Shown piece after piece: positions 3,115-7,596 of a DNA stretch of 11,616 nt; the first letter of the stretch is position 1; the number at the start of each line of letters is the position of its first letter. Under the pieces are notes generated by a model. That model saw nothing but the letters and a program-made list of their open reading frames with translations. It was not told the origin of the DNA and did not search any database. The DNA lies in the NCBI GenBank assembly GCA_963922445.1, contig CAWUJQ010000120.1:1-11616 (forward strand), in the 5' to 3' direction. Origin of the DNA: an uncultured bacterium (GTDB taxonomy: Bacteria; Chloroflexota; Anaerolineae; Aggregatilineales; Phototrophicaceae). The position numbers and the translations under genes are program-made.

Positions 3115-3267
3115 GATACAGGGTGCTTTCTGGTTGTGGATTAGAGAGGCATTGTATCACGTTGGCGGCCTGTGACAGCCCAAGCAATGACGGGGATTTT
3201 AGGATGCGTGGGGGGAGTAGCACTATTGGTGGGGACGCCTTGCAGCGCCCCCAAAACAGGCAAAAGC

Positions 3268-5154
3268 CTATTCCATTTCGCCTTCGTCCAAACGGACGAC
3301 GTTCGGCTCAGCCGTTGGGTCTTCGATGTTGACCTCACCACCCAGTGCTTCGGTGATGTAGCTGATGAGAATCTCACGCTCACCGATGCCCGGGTCTTCG
3401 CTGCCGCGTACTTCAGCCGCCGCCGCCAATGCGGTATAGCCGTCACCGCCCGTCAGCAGGAAGCTGTTGGTCACGATGGTGAAGGTCTGTTCCAGGTCGC
3501 CTACAACCTCGCCCTCTTCAACCATAACCACTTCGCTGCCGTCAGCCATCGTAACGATGAGCGTGACAACACGGGTGGTTTCGGTCAGGCTCTCAGCGTC
3601 GCTCACGCCTTCAACGCTGGCGTCGTATTCCAGGTATACACCCGCCAACTGCGGGAAGCGGCCATCAGCAGCCGGAACGCGGCTTACAGCGTTTTCCATA
3701 ATCGCCAGCAGTTCGTCGCCGCTGACCTCAACCACAGCCATGCTGTTGTTGAACGCCAGAGCGGTACCAACGGTCAGCACGGTGATGTTCGGGCCGAGGA
3801 TGGTCGCACGGATACCGCCGCCGTTCTTCAGGGCGATGTCTACACCGTCTTCGAAGGTGTTGTTGGCCCACCACAGGGAGGACTCAGCAGCCAGCTTGCC
3901 CAGGTTGGTTTCACGGCCACGCACGTCAGCGCGAACGCCGTTCAGTTCGGTGGCGGTGGTGCCCACTACTTCAAGCTGTTCCATCAGCAGGTCGGTCGCA
4001 ACCAGGCCATCGTAAATGCTCTGAACATCTTCCGGTACGGCAACTTCAGCGCCGGAGAACTCTGCCAGGGCAGCGATCGCTTCTTCAGTGGAAGCAACCG
4101 GGCCGGCGGTTGCTTCATCGAAGCCAACAATCACGCCGTCAGCGTCGAATTCCACAATCACGTGGCCGATGTAGCGGTAGAGCTGCTCGGTGTTGACAAC
4201 CAAAACGGTGTTGCCGTCAGCGTCTTCCTGCACGACCGGGTAAACCTCGGTGCCGCTGTCGCCTTCGCGCAGCAGGTTGAACGGGCCGTTGGCTTCTTCA
4301 GCAGCGAAGAACCCAGTGGAACCCGCAGACACAATCACGTCAATGCCGCTCAGCGCGTCCGGGGTCAGCGGGTCACCCGTGAAGTCCTGGGCGTGGTCCA
4401 GCAGGATGATCTTGTTGATGCCCTGTTCTTCCAGCAGTGCAACCTGCTCAGCAACCTGGTCTACAGCAGAAACCAGCGGCTGGTTATCTTCAGCGTTGCG
4501 GCCACCAACAAAGTCCAGGCCAGGGATGGTTTCTTCGGGGTCTTCAATGACGTTGAAGAAGTCAGCCGGGGCGCGGCCAATCAAACCGATGCGCTCGCCA
4601 CCTACTTCAATGAAAGCGCTCTTGGCAACCTTACCCGCCAGGTCTTCGACGCTCTGGCCGTCTTCACCAATTTCGATAGCCGGGGTGCCTTCAGCCAGTT
4701 CAACCGCGCTGAAGTCCAGGTTTACAGCCAGGAACGGGTAGTCCGCAGCGGCCAGCATGGTCGCAAAGGAGTCGATACCCGCGTCGAACTCGTGGTTACC
4801 CGTGCCGTTAGCCGTCAGGCCCATTGCGTTGAAGAACGCGATGTCTGCCAGGCCAGCAGCGCCCAGGTCTTCAACCTCAGCGGAAGCCTCGAAGAACGGG
4901 TTCGGCAGCGTGTGGTCGCCAGCGGTGACGTAGATGCTGTTTGCGCCGTCGTTGGGAGCAAGGGTGCGCAAACCGCTCACGATGGCACCGTAGTTCAAGA
5001 TTTTCGGTTCCAACGTGTTCGGGTCCTGGAATGCGGACTCGTTGTCTGAGCTGTGCAGAATTTGTAGAGAGAAGCCTTCTTCTTGAGCGCTGACCGTGCT
5101 AACCAGCAGCAGCACGACGACAGCCATCAAAGTAGCCATAACGCGACGAGACAT
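3268..5154 (-). CDS. Secreted bifunctional metallophosphatase/5'-nucleotidase (UshA/5'-NT family)
   Basis: The N-terminal signal peptide is MSRRVMATLMAVVVLLLVSTVSAQEE. The calcineurin-like phosphoesterase motifs are LQILHSSDNES, YVTAGDHT and GTGNHEFD. The 5'-nucleotidase C-terminal domain motifs are NGGGIRA and VTNSFLLTGGDGY. A strong RBS is present: on the minus strand GAAAGGACACTT immediately precedes the ATG. The plus-strand 625-aa ORF 3172-5049 is an antisense shadow. Confidence 0.88.
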   Translation of the reverse strand: MSRRVMATLMAVVVLLLVSTVSAQEEGFSLQILHSSDNESAFQDPNTLEPKILNYGAIVSGLRTLAPNDGANSIYVTAGDHTLPNPFFEASAEVEDLGAAGLADIAFFNAMGLTANGTGNHEFDAGIDSFATMLAAADYPFLAVNLDFSAVELAEGTPAIEIGEDGQSVEDLAGKVAKSAFIEVGGERIGLIGRAPADFFNVIEDPEETIPGLDFVGGRNAEDNQPLVSAVDQVAEQVALLEEQGINKIILLDHAQDFTGDPLTPDALSGIDVIVSAGSTGFFAAEEANGPFNLLREGDSGTEVYPVVQEDADGNTVLVVNTEQLYRYIGHVIVEFDADGVIVGFDEATAGPVASTEEAIAALAEFSGAEVAVPEDVQSIYDGLVATDLLMEQLEVVGTTATELNGVRADVRGRETNLGKLAAESSLWWANNTFEDGVDIALKNGGGIRATILGPNITVLTVGTALAFNNSMAVVEVSGDELLAIMENAVSRVPAADGRFPQLAGVYLEYDASVEGVSDAESLTETTRVVTLIVTMADGSEVVMVEEGEVVGDLEQTFTIVTNSFLLTGGDGYTALAAAAEVRGSEDPGIGEREILISYITEALGGEVNIEDPTAEPNVVRLDEGEME

Positions 5155-5322
5155 AAGTGTCCTTTCGTAATGTGTTTGATTGAGTAGTTAGCCCCGTTTG
5201 GGGACACTCGTATTAGGACACAGCCGCATTAAGGCGATGTAAAATCGCGTTGAAATCCGTTAATCATACGCGTTAGATTTTCATCAGCGAGCAGTTATCC
5301 GTTGCCGTATGGAGGGGTACAG

Positions 5323-6108
5323 CTACACCGCAGGCCAAGGGTAATTGGGGCCGGGGCCGGGGTTCGGGTAGCGGCGGGTGCCCACAACACGATCCACACG
5401 GCGCTGAAAAGCGTCAATTTCGTAGGGTAACAGCAGCTCATCAAGCTGTTTGCGATAGTCGCTGTCGGCGTCTTGCAAGGTACCACACAGCATTTCCACA
5501 TCCTGCATAAATGGCTCCGGGATTTGCTGCCCGGCAAAGTCCCAGATGACAGTACGCAGCTTATGGTCTGCATTGAAGGTAATGCCGTGGTCAATGCCCC
5601 AAATTTGGTCGTGCGGGTCCAGCAGCAGGTGGCCGCCCTTACGGTCTGCATTGTTGACCAGTACATCAAACAGGGCCACCCGTGCCAACTGCGACGCGTA
5701 GCTGTCATCCAGCGTGAAGTAGTTCACATTGGGGTCGTGGTCAATGTAAAACTGTACCGACCCAATACCGTGAGCGCCATCGCGCAGGGCTGTTGGCGGC
5801 ACTACCCCCCACTCTAATAGCTGCGATGTGAGGAAAGCGGCACGTTCGCGGTTGCACAGCGTGCCATCGGGGAAGTCCCACAGTGGGCGTTCGCCCTTGC
5901 GCGGCTTATACACTGCCGGCACTTCCAGGTCATCCTTGCGCATGGTCACCAGGAAGGTGTAATTGGAACTGTAGCGCATCATCCCGTGCAAAGTGTCCAT
6001 CGCACCACAGTCCAGCGCATCAATCACCGTTTGAATCGTCAACTCAACCGCCGGTTGATCGTCTTCCTGTGGGGTTTGGGAATTGGGGGTTTGCGGCTCG
6101 TCTGTCAT
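5323..6108 (-). CDS. SCO1664-family protein (PI3/PI4-kinase-like fold, TIGR03843-type), third gene of the conserved cassette
   Basis: The kinase-like catalytic loop NNADRKGGHLLLD resembles the DRHxxN loop of PI3/4-kinases, and the metal-binding GIDHG resembles the DFG/IDFG loop. The ORF track starts at GTG 6120. An in-frame ATG at 6108 is preceded by GTGAGGCAGGTC, which supplies a GAGG Shine-Dalgarno at good spacing, so ATG 6108 (MTDEPQTP...) is the more likely start. It lies 80 bp downstream of the DUF3090 gene on the same strand. Confidence 0.75.
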   Translation of the reverse strand: MTDEPQTPNSQTPQEDDQPAVELTIQTVIDALDCGAMDTLHGMMRYSSNYTFLVTMRKDDLEVPAVYKPRKGERPLWDFPDGTLCNRERAAFLTSQLLEWGVVPPTALRDGAHGIGSVQFYIDHDPNVNYFTLDDSYASQLARVALFDVLVNNADRKGGHLLLDPHDQIWGIDHGITFNADHKLRTVIWDFAGQQIPEPFMQDVEMLCGTLQDADSDYRKQLDELLLPYEIDAFQRRVDRVVGTRRYPNPGPGPNYPWPAV

Positions 6109-6200
6109 GACCTGCCTCACTCACACTGGGTTACGAGTTATGTTGGTTGAGGGGCGGTCAGCATGCCCCTACAGATGACGGTTGACGGTTCGGTGTGTCG

Positions 6201-6686
6201 TTACGTCCAGTAGTATACCAGACGCCCGTTCTGCTTCGGGTCTGCCCGGCCTGCCTGCACCGTTTCGAGCGCGTGCATACTCAGGGCACGCATCTGATCG
6301 CGACTGCACCACATGCGAACCACACCGGGTTCGTCTGCTTCGGACTGAGGCACCATCTCCTGGGCCACCAGCACAATCATGCCGCGCTCTTCATCGTAGC
6401 CGATGCCCATCTGCGCCACGCGGAAAACCGGGCGGATCGGTTCGCGCAAGTCCATGTCCAGGTCGTTGATGTCGAAGGCGTTGAACTCAAATGATTCTTT
6501 GTCCAAGTCGTCAATCAGGTCGGTAATGGCTTCGCTGAGCGCCCACGCTTGTTCTTTTTCAATCACAAGCGAGACCAACTGCGTGCCCTGCCCCGCCTGC
6601 AAGTGGAACACCCGCTGCCCCTTAGGGCCAATGGTGCCAATGGTGACGAAGTCTACCGGGTTTAGTTCGATTTCTACTTTTGACAT
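6201..6686 (-). CDS. DUF3090-family protein (TIGR03847-type conserved hypothetical), middle gene of the cassette
   Basis: This is a 161-aa acidic protein. Its N-terminus, FVTIGTIGPKGQRVFHLQAGQGTQLVSLVIEKEQ, matches the characteristic DUF3090 signature (FxAGxxGxPGxRxFxLQA...V.LEKQQ) from memory. Near the C-terminus there is a single Cys (VVRMWCSRDQ). An excellent RBS is present: on the minus strand AAGGAGGGCGAACG immediately precedes the ATG. Confidence 0.7.
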   Translation of the reverse strand: MSKVEIELNPVDFVTIGTIGPKGQRVFHLQAGQGTQLVSLVIEKEQAWALSEAITDLIDDLDKESFEFNAFDINDLDMDLREPIRPVFRVAQMGIGYDEERGMIVLVAQEMVPQSEADEPGVVRMWCSRDQMRALSMHALETVQAGRADPKQNGRLVYYWT

Positions 6687-6737
6687 GCGTTCGCCCTCCT
6701 TACTAGCGGAAGTTGTCGATGAATCGGTGGAGTCCGT

Positions 6738-7391
6738 TTATGAGGTTTTGCCATTTTGTTCGGCTTTTTTTCGTTCTGTTTCCAGCGCTTGCACATGAGC
6801 GGTGTCGTTAACCGTGGTGATGAATGGGCGGCTGTGCCCCAGTTGAATGCCCGTGATGGACGCGGGTGAGATCACAATCCGCTGGAACACGTCCAGGTGC
6901 ATGCCCAGGTAGTGGGCCACCACCATCTTAATCAGGTCGGCATGGCTAAAGATGGCAATCGTGTGGGTCGGGTATTCCCGCGCCAACCGCTCGATTTCGT
7001 TTACCGCCCGCACCTGCACATTGCGCATGGTTTCGCCATTGGGGAAGTACGCCCGTGTGGGGTATTCCTGGATGACGCTCCACATTTTGCGCCCGCGCAA
7101 GCTGGAAATACTGGCCCCTTGCCAGTCGCCGTAGTCCACCTCGCCAATTTCGTCGTTCGTCTGGATTTGCAGGTGGGGATGGTATTGGGCTACAGCCTGT
7201 GCTGTTTCCTGCGTGCGGTCTAGCGGGCTAGAGATGATCTGGTGCAGTTTGCTATCGGCAAGGCGTTTGCCAAGGGCTTCGGCCTGTGCCTTGCCGTCGT
7301 CGTTCAAGTGGACGCCGGGCGTGCGGCCAGCGAGTTTGCCAGTTTTCACAAAATCGTTGACGGCGTGCCGGATAAGTAGGATGTGGGTCAT
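6738..7391 (-). CDS. Histidine phosphatase superfamily protein (phosphoglycerate-mutase-like; MSMEG_4193-type putative phosphomutase), first gene of the cassette
   Basis: The catalytic RHG-type motif is LLIRHAVND. The conserved SSPLDRTQETAQ motif is present. The second catalytic His sits in IAIFSHADLI. The length of 217 aa is typical for the family. Confidence 0.8.
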   Translation of the reverse strand: MTHILLIRHAVNDFVKTGKLAGRTPGVHLNDDGKAQAEALGKRLADSKLHQIISSPLDRTQETAQAVAQYHPHLQIQTNDEIGEVDYGDWQGASISSLRGRKMWSVIQEYPTRAYFPNGETMRNVQVRAVNEIERLAREYPTHTIAIFSHADLIKMVVAHYLGMHLDVFQRIVISPASITGIQLGHSRPFITTVNDTAHVQALETERKKAEQNGKTS

Positions 7392-7596
7392 AACTGCCGT
7401 TCTGGTGTGGGTCGCTGATAGATAGTGATATTGATCGGAGTGATTTGTGCGTAATTGCCAGCATCATATCACAAACACGGGGGCATTTCATTAAAGCTGC
7501 GTGCATTCTATAGAAACGCCTACGGAGTGGACTTGTGCGGATGTCATGGCCCGGTTCGCTATACAATGACACCAGTGTCGTTCAAAGGGGATGCTT
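7392..7596. promoter_or_regulatory. Divergent intergenic region between the phosphatase cassette (minus) and the paralog array (plus). It contains short direct and inverted repeats and a TATACAAT -10-like box
   Basis: AGTGAT occurs twice as a direct repeat (7424-7429 and 7439-7444). GTGATAT (7426-7432) forms an inverted repeat with ATATCAC (7466-7472). A TATACAAT box lies at 7560-7567. GACAC-ca-GTGTC (7569-7580) sits just upstream of the AAAGGGG RBS. No well-spaced -35 was found, so the promoter call is weak. Confidence 0.25.

Follow-up and report, generated by a model that had tools for sequence, protein, structure and literature searches.

The 11,616-nucleotide stretch analysed here (contig CAWUJQ010000120.1 of assembly GCA_963922445.1, from an uncultured bacterium of the Phototrophicaceae; hereafter the window) carries an intact copy of a three-gene cassette that is catalogued in Actinobacteria and Chloroflexi and that encodes a histidine phosphatase, a DUF3090 protein, and a kinase of the SCO1664 family. 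The linkage of the three genes is far beyond chance, and we tentatively read the operon, with somewhat less than even confidence, as a self-contained kinase/phosphatase switch built around the DUF3090 protein, which would serve as phospho-acceptor or as adaptor. The sole distinction of this otherwise catalogued copy is the loss of the zinc-binding tail of DUF3090. Since the cassette itself was already catalogued, the new elements are the fold assignments, the quantified synteny, the gene fusions, and a zinc-less, YYWT-tailed form of DUF3090 that is typical of the window's Chloroflexota clade. The three genes are as follows.

6738 to 7391, minus strand: gene 1, histidine phosphatase of the MSMEG_4193 / Rv2135c subfamily (TIGR03848 and His_Phos_1), 217 amino acids
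6201 to 6686, minus strand: gene 2, DUF3090 protein in the form without a zinc ribbon, ending in GRADPKQNGRLVYYWT, 161 amino acids, isoelectric point (pI) 4.5
5323 to 6108, minus strand: gene 3, SCO1664-family kinase with a predicted fold like that of type II phosphatidylinositol (PI) 4-kinases, 261 amino acids; alternative GTG start at 6120

Identity and linkage of the three genes

Profile scores identify the trio as the MSMEG_4193, DUF3090 (TIGR03847), and SCO1664 families, as a preliminary description of this DNA had named them. The phosphatase matches TIGR03848 with 224 bits (cutoff 203.85; profile positions 2-200 of 204) and His_Phos_1 with 158 bits, and the kinase matches TIGR03843 with 267.1 bits (cutoff 172.4) and PI3_PI4_kinase (PF00454) with 33.2 bits (gathering score 27.1). 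Among the three TIGRFAM-type models that had been proposed as a check, TIGR03848 and TIGR03843 are thus exceeded and TIGR03847 is narrowly missed: the DUF3090 protein scores 114.8 bits against a cutoff of 117.25, 2.4 bits short, with profile positions 4-157 of 177 aligned, because the C-terminal zinc ribbon has been lost in this clade. This shortfall reflects the missing ribbon and not a false assignment. The protein scores 111.7 bits against the Pfam model DUF3090 (PF11290; gathering score 27), and the core residues of the family (G20, G23, R25, F27, Q30, E43, K44, G146, R147, N153, and G154) are all present. The cassette had also been ascribed to high-GC Gram-positive bacteria and related genomes; the host here is not a high-GC Gram-positive but an Anaerolineae-like member of the Chloroflexota whose close relatives are annotated as metagenome-assembled genomes (MAGs) of Chloroflexota, Anaerolineae, or Phototrophicaceae.

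To obtain related loci, we used the kinase alignment to scan genomes, one for each species, and kept the best 80 of at least 600 matches. These loci span Chloroflexota (Anaerolineae, Chloroflexia, Dehalococcoidia, and others) and Actinomycetota (Acidimicrobiia, Streptomyces, Geodermatophilus, Bifidobacteriaceae, and others). Synteny was counted at the 67 loci with 2 kb or more of sequence 5' of the kinase, where open reading frames (ORFs) were called and searched with purpose-built profiles. The preliminary description had claimed linkage and had taken unlinked families as the outcome that would speak against it; 53 of the 67 loci keep all three genes on a single strand, with the phosphatase first, DUF3090 second, and the kinase third, including two (L039 and L075) where an over-extended kinase ORF masked the DUF3090 match. 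DUF3090 almost never stands apart from the kinase, in some genomes it is fused to the phosphatase, and the three genes make up a tight unit that is conserved across two phyla. The DUF3090 stop codon and the kinase start codon abut or overlap in most loci, and the window clade is unusual in having a spacer of 75 to 109 nucleotides before the kinase.

A clustering of all neighbouring ORFs revealed no conserved fourth gene, as no other family occurs at more than 19 of 81 loci. The largest cluster after the trio is an ABC ATPase (19 of 81), and response regulators, histidine kinases, GDP-mannose dehydratase, and RarA occur near the trio in a lineage-specific manner. With no other recurrent neighbour family, the trio is a self-contained unit. 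Natural fusions of His_Phos_1 with DUF3090 are found in a metagenome cluster (P0275) and in Candidatus Aquidulcis (L072:8699-9880), which argues that the two proteins work in contact. An Asp_Glu_race-DUF3090 fusion is found in another cluster (P0309). Genes lying between DUF3090 and the kinase, one at L014 (9335-9901) and two at L015 (8696-9262 and 9334-9900), encode Uma2-type (DUF820) endonucleases; they were rejected as partners and are regarded as insertions that split a tight pair.

The DUF3090 protein and its lost zinc ribbon

A CxxC...HxC putative metal-binding motif has been described for DUF3090 / TIGR03847 (PMC9425974). We found 890 DUF3090 cluster representatives, and 47 of 58 diverse family members have the motif. 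The mainstream C-terminus reads GRPxCPxCGxPxDPxGHxCPxxNGH and gives weak matches to Pfam zinc-ribbon families. The window protein has one cysteine, lacks the CxxC...HxC motif, and ends in GRADPKQNGRLVYYWT (QNGRLVYYWT), a tail that is unchanged in 56 relatives with 68% to 93% identity. Among 70 related loci with a DUF3090 gene, the ribbon is present in 50, including every Actinomycetota locus, and a YYW-form tail is present in 16, all of them in Chloroflexota. The zinc ribbon is therefore dispensable, given that a whole clade does without it, and this narrows the essential part of the protein. The last ten residues are predicted to be disordered yet are invariant, which suggests that the YYWT tail is a docking motif. 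The Brevefilum proteins (L073:6045-6584 and L077:9387-9941) are intermediate between the two forms: a loop of ribbon length is kept and every Cys/His ligand is replaced (GRPVWPSTGEPILPPGEFSPKNNGH); no phosphatase gene adjoins at these two loci.

The family is acidic throughout (median pI 4.65, range 4.3 to 5.8; net charge about -12), and Lys and Arg residues are scarce on its strands. Arg25 and Arg147 are invariant or nearly so, and Ser/Thr is conserved at 95% at position 39. The order of secondary structure is four strands and a helix followed by three strands and a helix, and the predicted structure has the repeated strand-strand-strand-strand-helix fold of PUR and Whirly proteins, with a weak internal-repeat signal (P = 6e-4).

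This architecture raises the possibility of a nucleic-acid module, in which DUF3090, as a single-strand binder of Pur-alpha/Whirly type with an added zinc knuckle, would deliver RNA or DNA to the two enzymes for reversible hydroxyl phosphorylation or end healing. We consider such a module highly unlikely. Apart from the strand order and the weak repeat, it would account for the zinc-ribbon-like motif of most DUF3090 members, and ArkI, an RNA kinase of protein-kinase fold, is among the structural neighbours of the cassette kinase. Transposon mutants of Rv2134c, the DUF3090 gene of Mycobacterium tuberculosis by gene order, were sensitized in BCG to rifampicin below the minimal inhibitory concentration, alongside rnhC and uvrA (PMC11329110), and RarA lies 5' of the operon in seven Anaerolineales loci. 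However, the RarA linkage is limited to one lineage, the zinc ribbon is lost in the window clade, and the strong acidity of DUF3090 is the opposite of the basic binding surfaces of Pur-alpha and Whirly. Identity to the Pur-alpha PUR domain and Whirly is 5%, and there is no similarity at the profile level. None of 58 DUF3090 members has a PurA or Whirly Pfam match, even at E = 10, and hhalign of DUF3090 against PURA gives a probability of 0.3% (with a hand-entered PURA sequence). The structures differ as well, since the second repeat has four strands in Pur-alpha and Whirly and three in DUF3090, and most DUF3090 members add the C-terminal ribbon. In view of the acidity and the missing sequence link to PurA, the Pur-like fold is taken as a scaffold rather than as evidence of nucleic-acid binding, which is disfavoured. 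No solved structure related by sequence was found for DUF3090.

The two enzymes, the proposed switch, and its alternatives

Judging from its residues, the phosphatase is catalytically intact: R8-H9 (within R8-H9-A10, the RHA variant of RHG), R59, E84, and H150 are all in place. Its closest solved relative by sequence is the phosphoserine phosphatase PspA (4ij5, E = 2.8e-18), and PspA, CobC, and the C-terminal domain of Rv2228c are its nearest characterised relatives (102 to 107 bits against their NCBIfam models). These scores are far under the cutoffs of the models themselves (162 to 350 bits), which places the protein in the separate TIGR03848 subfamily. The only member of that family assayed so far is the M. 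tuberculosis ortholog Rv2135c, a weak acid phosphatase with the RHA motif and without phosphoglycerate mutase activity (PMC3866925). A role as phosphoglycerate mutase or as an equivalent of CobC or PspA was rejected on the grounds of these low scores and of the missing mutase activity of Rv2135c.

The kinase has a G-loop (SSNYTF, 47-52), K68, E88, a D155-R-K-G-G-H160 catalytic loop, and D173-H-G175, followed by a basic K183-L-R185 and a C-terminal PWPAV. K68, E88, the DRKGGH loop, and DHG are invariant in 63 homologs, and the basic K183 and R185 after DHG are invariant too. From these motifs we infer that the enzyme is catalytically competent and ATP-dependent. The C-terminal PWP[PL][VI], which follows a Pro/Gly-rich stretch, is present at 80 of 80 loci in both phyla, kinase-only loci included, and looks like a docking or anchoring motif; its residues are of low confidence in the model of the window kinase. 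The predicted fold is that of PI3/PI4-type kinases, in agreement with the PF00454 match. No solved structure related by sequence was found for the kinase. Its structural neighbours span lipid, protein, and sugar kinases, with protein kinases as the next best after the type II PI 4-kinases, so the predicted fold does not decide between a lipid, protein, or sugar substrate. In a PADLOC search the kinase partially matched the candidate model PDC-M66A (18 bits); this was the sole match, and a role in anti-phage defence was rejected.

The Ser-rich G-loop, the DRxxxN-type catalytic loop (DRGNDN in PI4K2B), and the DxG metal-binding motif of PI4K2A and PI4K2B align with the window kinase, which also exceeds the gathering score of PI3_PI4_kinase. 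In contrast, identity is 16% to 18%, the palmitoylation and membrane-binding inserts are absent from the minimal, 261-amino-acid window protein, and the usual catalytic-loop Asn is replaced by His, which is invariant in the family.

These similarities are consistent with a lipid or small-molecule pathway, in which the PI 4-kinase-like enzyme would phosphorylate an inositol lipid or metabolite (for example, phosphatidylinositol or a precursor of mycothiol or PI), the phosphatase/mutase would act on the same compound, and DUF3090 would be an accessory or membrane-targeting protein. We regard this pathway as unlikely, though deserving serious consideration. Inositol lipids are made by Actinobacteria and many Chloroflexi, and basic residues after DHG, such as the invariant K183 and R185, mark the head-group binding spot of PI kinases. 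The aromatic C-terminal tails of DUF3090 (YYWT) and of the kinase (PWPxV) could be anchors at the membrane interface. SCO1664 is an actinobacterial signature gene that invariably adjoins mshC (PMC4255298), and Rv2135c has been found in membrane fractions and hydrolyses small phosphoesters (PMC3866925). Further, a phosphatase converting bacterial PI phosphate to PI was not identified before the Bacteroides enzyme (bioRxiv 10.1101/2021.04.26.441525). The genomic context argues in the other direction, as no inositol, mycothiol, or phospholipid gene recurs beside the trio in 81 loci. PIG-L follows the kinase in L084/L085 and GNAT in L088/L089, but this is not general: beyond these close relatives, PIG-L occurs at 1 of 80 loci and GNAT at 0 of 80. 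A general link to mycothiol-type genes was rejected after an iterative search of all loci, in which the one additional PIG-L gene lies 6.9 kb away. To our knowledge, Chloroflexi are not makers of mycothiol. Neither a transmembrane nor a lipid-binding domain was detected, the next-best structural neighbours of the kinase are protein kinases, and a lipid pathway leaves a dedicated acidic protein of 160 amino acids, sometimes fused to the phosphatase, without explanation.

The reading that we favour, a kinase/phosphatase switch around DUF3090, gives that protein a central role. The three genes would be co-transcribed as one operon, and their products would physically associate. The SCO1664-family kinase, with its type II PI 4-kinase-like fold, would add a phosphate in an ATP-dependent manner, the phosphatase would remove the same phosphate through a phospho-His9 intermediate, and the small acidic DUF3090 protein would be the dedicated partner of both enzymes. 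In the favoured version DUF3090 is the phospho-acceptor, a switch protein whose state would be set by the two enzymes; in a close alternative it would be a specificity or regulatory subunit that presents another substrate. The operon order of rsbU-rsbV-rsbW is likewise phosphatase, partner, kinase. The acceptor version is preferred because the gene order echoes such partner-switch operons and because Ser/Thr39, Arg25, and Arg147 are conserved, and the adaptor version is nearly as likely. The phospho-transfer cycle with DUF3090 as substrate or carrier that had been suggested for this locus is plausible and fits both the synteny and the fusions.

Several observations weigh against this switch. 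DUF3090 and the kinase occur without the phosphatase at 6 of the 67 loci, and the kinase stands alone at 8 (L042, L049, L051, L057, L060, L063, L070, and L079), all of them Dehalococcoidia-like, so that the kinase presumably can act without DUF3090 or the phosphatase nearby. The phosphatase-DUF3090 fusions suit an adaptor as well as a substrate, and DUF3090 has no Ser, Thr, Tyr, or His residue that is the same in all members. The closest structural neighbours of the kinase, the type II PI 4-kinases, are lipid kinases. In addition, Rv2135c has been assayed on small molecules only, on which it is weak, with a Km of about 10 mM (PMC3866925).

Another reading is an N-phosphorylation scheme. Arg25 and Arg147 are the only invariant or nearly invariant side chains of DUF3090 that carry a nucleophilic nitrogen, and the trio could form a protein-tagging system based on phosphoarginine (pArg) or phosphohistidine, analogous and not homologous to McsB / McsA / YwlE, which would fill the actinobacterial gap of an arginine kinase and phosphatase. 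This we hold to be very unlikely. The gene content parallels that of the McsB system, with a kinase, a small zinc-ribbon protein, and a phosphatase. The histidine-phosphatase superfamily includes phosphohistidine phosphatases, of which PGAM5 is one, and the window phosphatase has a weak SixA match. Up to July 2026 the mycobacterial arginine kinase and phosphatase had not been identified, though pArg and a pArg-binding ClpC1 exist (PMC9604228, PMC13345244), and MSMEG_4192, the DUF3090 gene by gene order, is listed among the interactors of ClpC1 (PMC10433963). However, that interactome list is long and the MSMEG_4192 signal in it is low (PMC10433963). The parallel is pure analogy, as there is no homology to McsB, McsA, or YwlE, no linkage to clpC or ctsR occurs in 81 loci, and the window clade is without the zinc ribbon. 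We know of no enzyme of the PI3/4-kinase fold that forms P-N bonds.

A stronger claim would be that the trio is an unrecognised bacterial protein-phosphorylation switch, in which an acidic partner of Pur fold would be the target or the intermediary of a minimal kinase of the type II PI 4-kinase fold and a phosphatase of the histidine superfamily. Its boldest version would be the missing protein arginine (N-)phosphorylation of Actinobacteria and Chloroflexi, feeding ClpC1, and another version a true bacterial phosphoinositide kinase/phosphatase pair. Put this strongly, the proposal is a long shot.

Transcription, neighbouring genes, and comparison with known systems

The spacers given in the preliminary description, 51 nucleotides between the phosphatase and DUF3090 genes and 80 between DUF3090 and the kinase, are accurate if the kinase ORF is read from the GTG (5323-6120, 265 amino acids). 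The ATG at 6108 is the likelier start, and the DUF3090-kinase gap then becomes 92 nucleotides. This ATG is used by the gene callers on two public contigs, a nearly identical NCBI MAG contig (L001) and an 11.7-kb metagenome scaffold to which the window corresponds after slight trimming (L002), and GAGG lies 6 nucleotides 5' of it. The DUF3090 gene has a strong ribosome-binding site (AAGGAGG), and the good ribosome-binding sites of genes 2 and 3, together with the short gaps, are counted in favour of an operon. No terminator-like site was predicted on the minus strand from 7800 to 5000, which is consistent with one transcript. Two further features were noted around the genes.

7463 to 7491, minus strand: candidate sigma-70-like promoter (ATGAAA-17-TATGAT with an extended TG) from a consensus scan, about 70 nucleotides 5' of the phosphatase start codon
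6150 to 6170, no strand assigned: 6-bp palindrome AGGGGC-N9-GCCCCT between the DUF3090 and kinase genes, probably functionless

The promoter candidate is weak evidence, as the consensus scan found two sites of this type in 2.8 kb where 1.6 are expected. The palindrome is exactly where it had been reported, and its suggested function as an intercistronic stem was rejected. Inverted repeats with arms of 6 nucleotides or more number 39 in 2.4 kb, this one included, a chance frequency, and the spacer RNA gains no stability over shuffled sequences (z = +0.95; 166 of 200 shuffled versions equal or surpass it). Among the closest relatives (L084, L086, and L088), two have a GC-rich, hairpin-capable stretch in another register and the third has none, and elsewhere in the family the two genes mostly adjoin directly or overlap.

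Downstream of the kinase in the window, 168 nucleotides 3' of it, the gene at 3268-5154 (minus strand) encodes a 628-amino-acid protein whose N-terminus resembles a signal peptide and which carries a 5'-nucleotidase C-terminal domain. The gene is kept in the nearest relatives only and was rejected as a member of the cassette. A 625-amino-acid antisense ORF (3172-5049, plus strand) is almost certainly an artefact of GC content. On the other side of the trio, four tandem paralogous ORFs (7591-9663, plus strand) each have a hydrophobic segment at the N-terminus, share the invariant C-terminal sequence WAFCVPG(G/E)xI(D/T)CE, and give no Pfam matches. The near-identical contig L001 has two copies where the window has four, so that copy number varies between close strains. 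These are followed by a gene (9762-11138, plus strand) for a 458-amino-acid protein with an SPFH/Band_7 domain, a major-vault-protein shoulder domain, and a weak vault-repeat match, a vault-like architecture that is unusual for a bacterium. Among the closest relatives, genes for a PIG-L deacetylase, a LysM protein, and a TIR_2 protein come after the kinase gene at L084 (region 4247-7430), and at L088 a GNAT acetyltransferase gene (7350-7940) follows and overlaps the kinase stop codon. A divergent CinA/PncC-like gene lies directly upstream at L042, L049, L051, L057, and L070, where the kinase is without its two partners.

The full-text literature searched (for DUF3090, SCO1664, the TIGR accessions, and the locus tags) held no functional study of the cassette, which bears out the earlier statement that it has no assigned biochemical function. 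From gene order, we infer that Rv2134c and MSMEG_4192 are DUF3090 genes; besides its listing with ClpC1, MSMEG_4192 appears in a dibucaine transposon-sequencing list. Few uncharacterised operons are as widely conserved as this cassette in Actinobacteria, including M. tuberculosis, and in Chloroflexota, and a role for a PI 4-kinase-like enzyme in bacteria would be new whether its substrate is a protein, a lipid, or a metabolite. The sequence finding itself, a correct family assignment, is ordinary; its value lies in directing attention to the question of what the cassette does, for which the predicted folds supply concrete hypotheses.

The trio resembles RsbU-RsbV-RsbW, SpoIIE-SpoIIAA-SpoIIAB, and McsA-McsB-YwlE in encoding together a kinase, the phosphatase that opposes it, and a small protein partner of their own. 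The resemblance is one of analogy only, as no component is homologous: the cassette kinase resembles neither the GHKL type nor McsB, its phosphatase is not of the PP2C or LMW-PTP kind, a STAS domain is absent, and no sigma factor or Clp gene is linked to the cassette in 81 loci. A far closer counterpart is the actinobacterial trio, represented in M. tuberculosis by Rv2135c-Rv2134c-Rv2133c (the last two assigned by gene order), which has the same three families in the same order, on one strand and tightly packed. The RHA motif and catalytic residues of Rv2135c are common to the window phosphatase, and the DRKGGH, DHG, and C-terminal PWPxV of the kinase family are also found in the window kinase. 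The window copy differs in its Anaerolineae-like Chloroflexota host, in lacking an mshC or uppP neighbour, and in the unusually long spacer before the kinase (80 to 92 nucleotides), and its DUF3090 protein has, in place of CxxC...HxC, the invariant YYWT tail.

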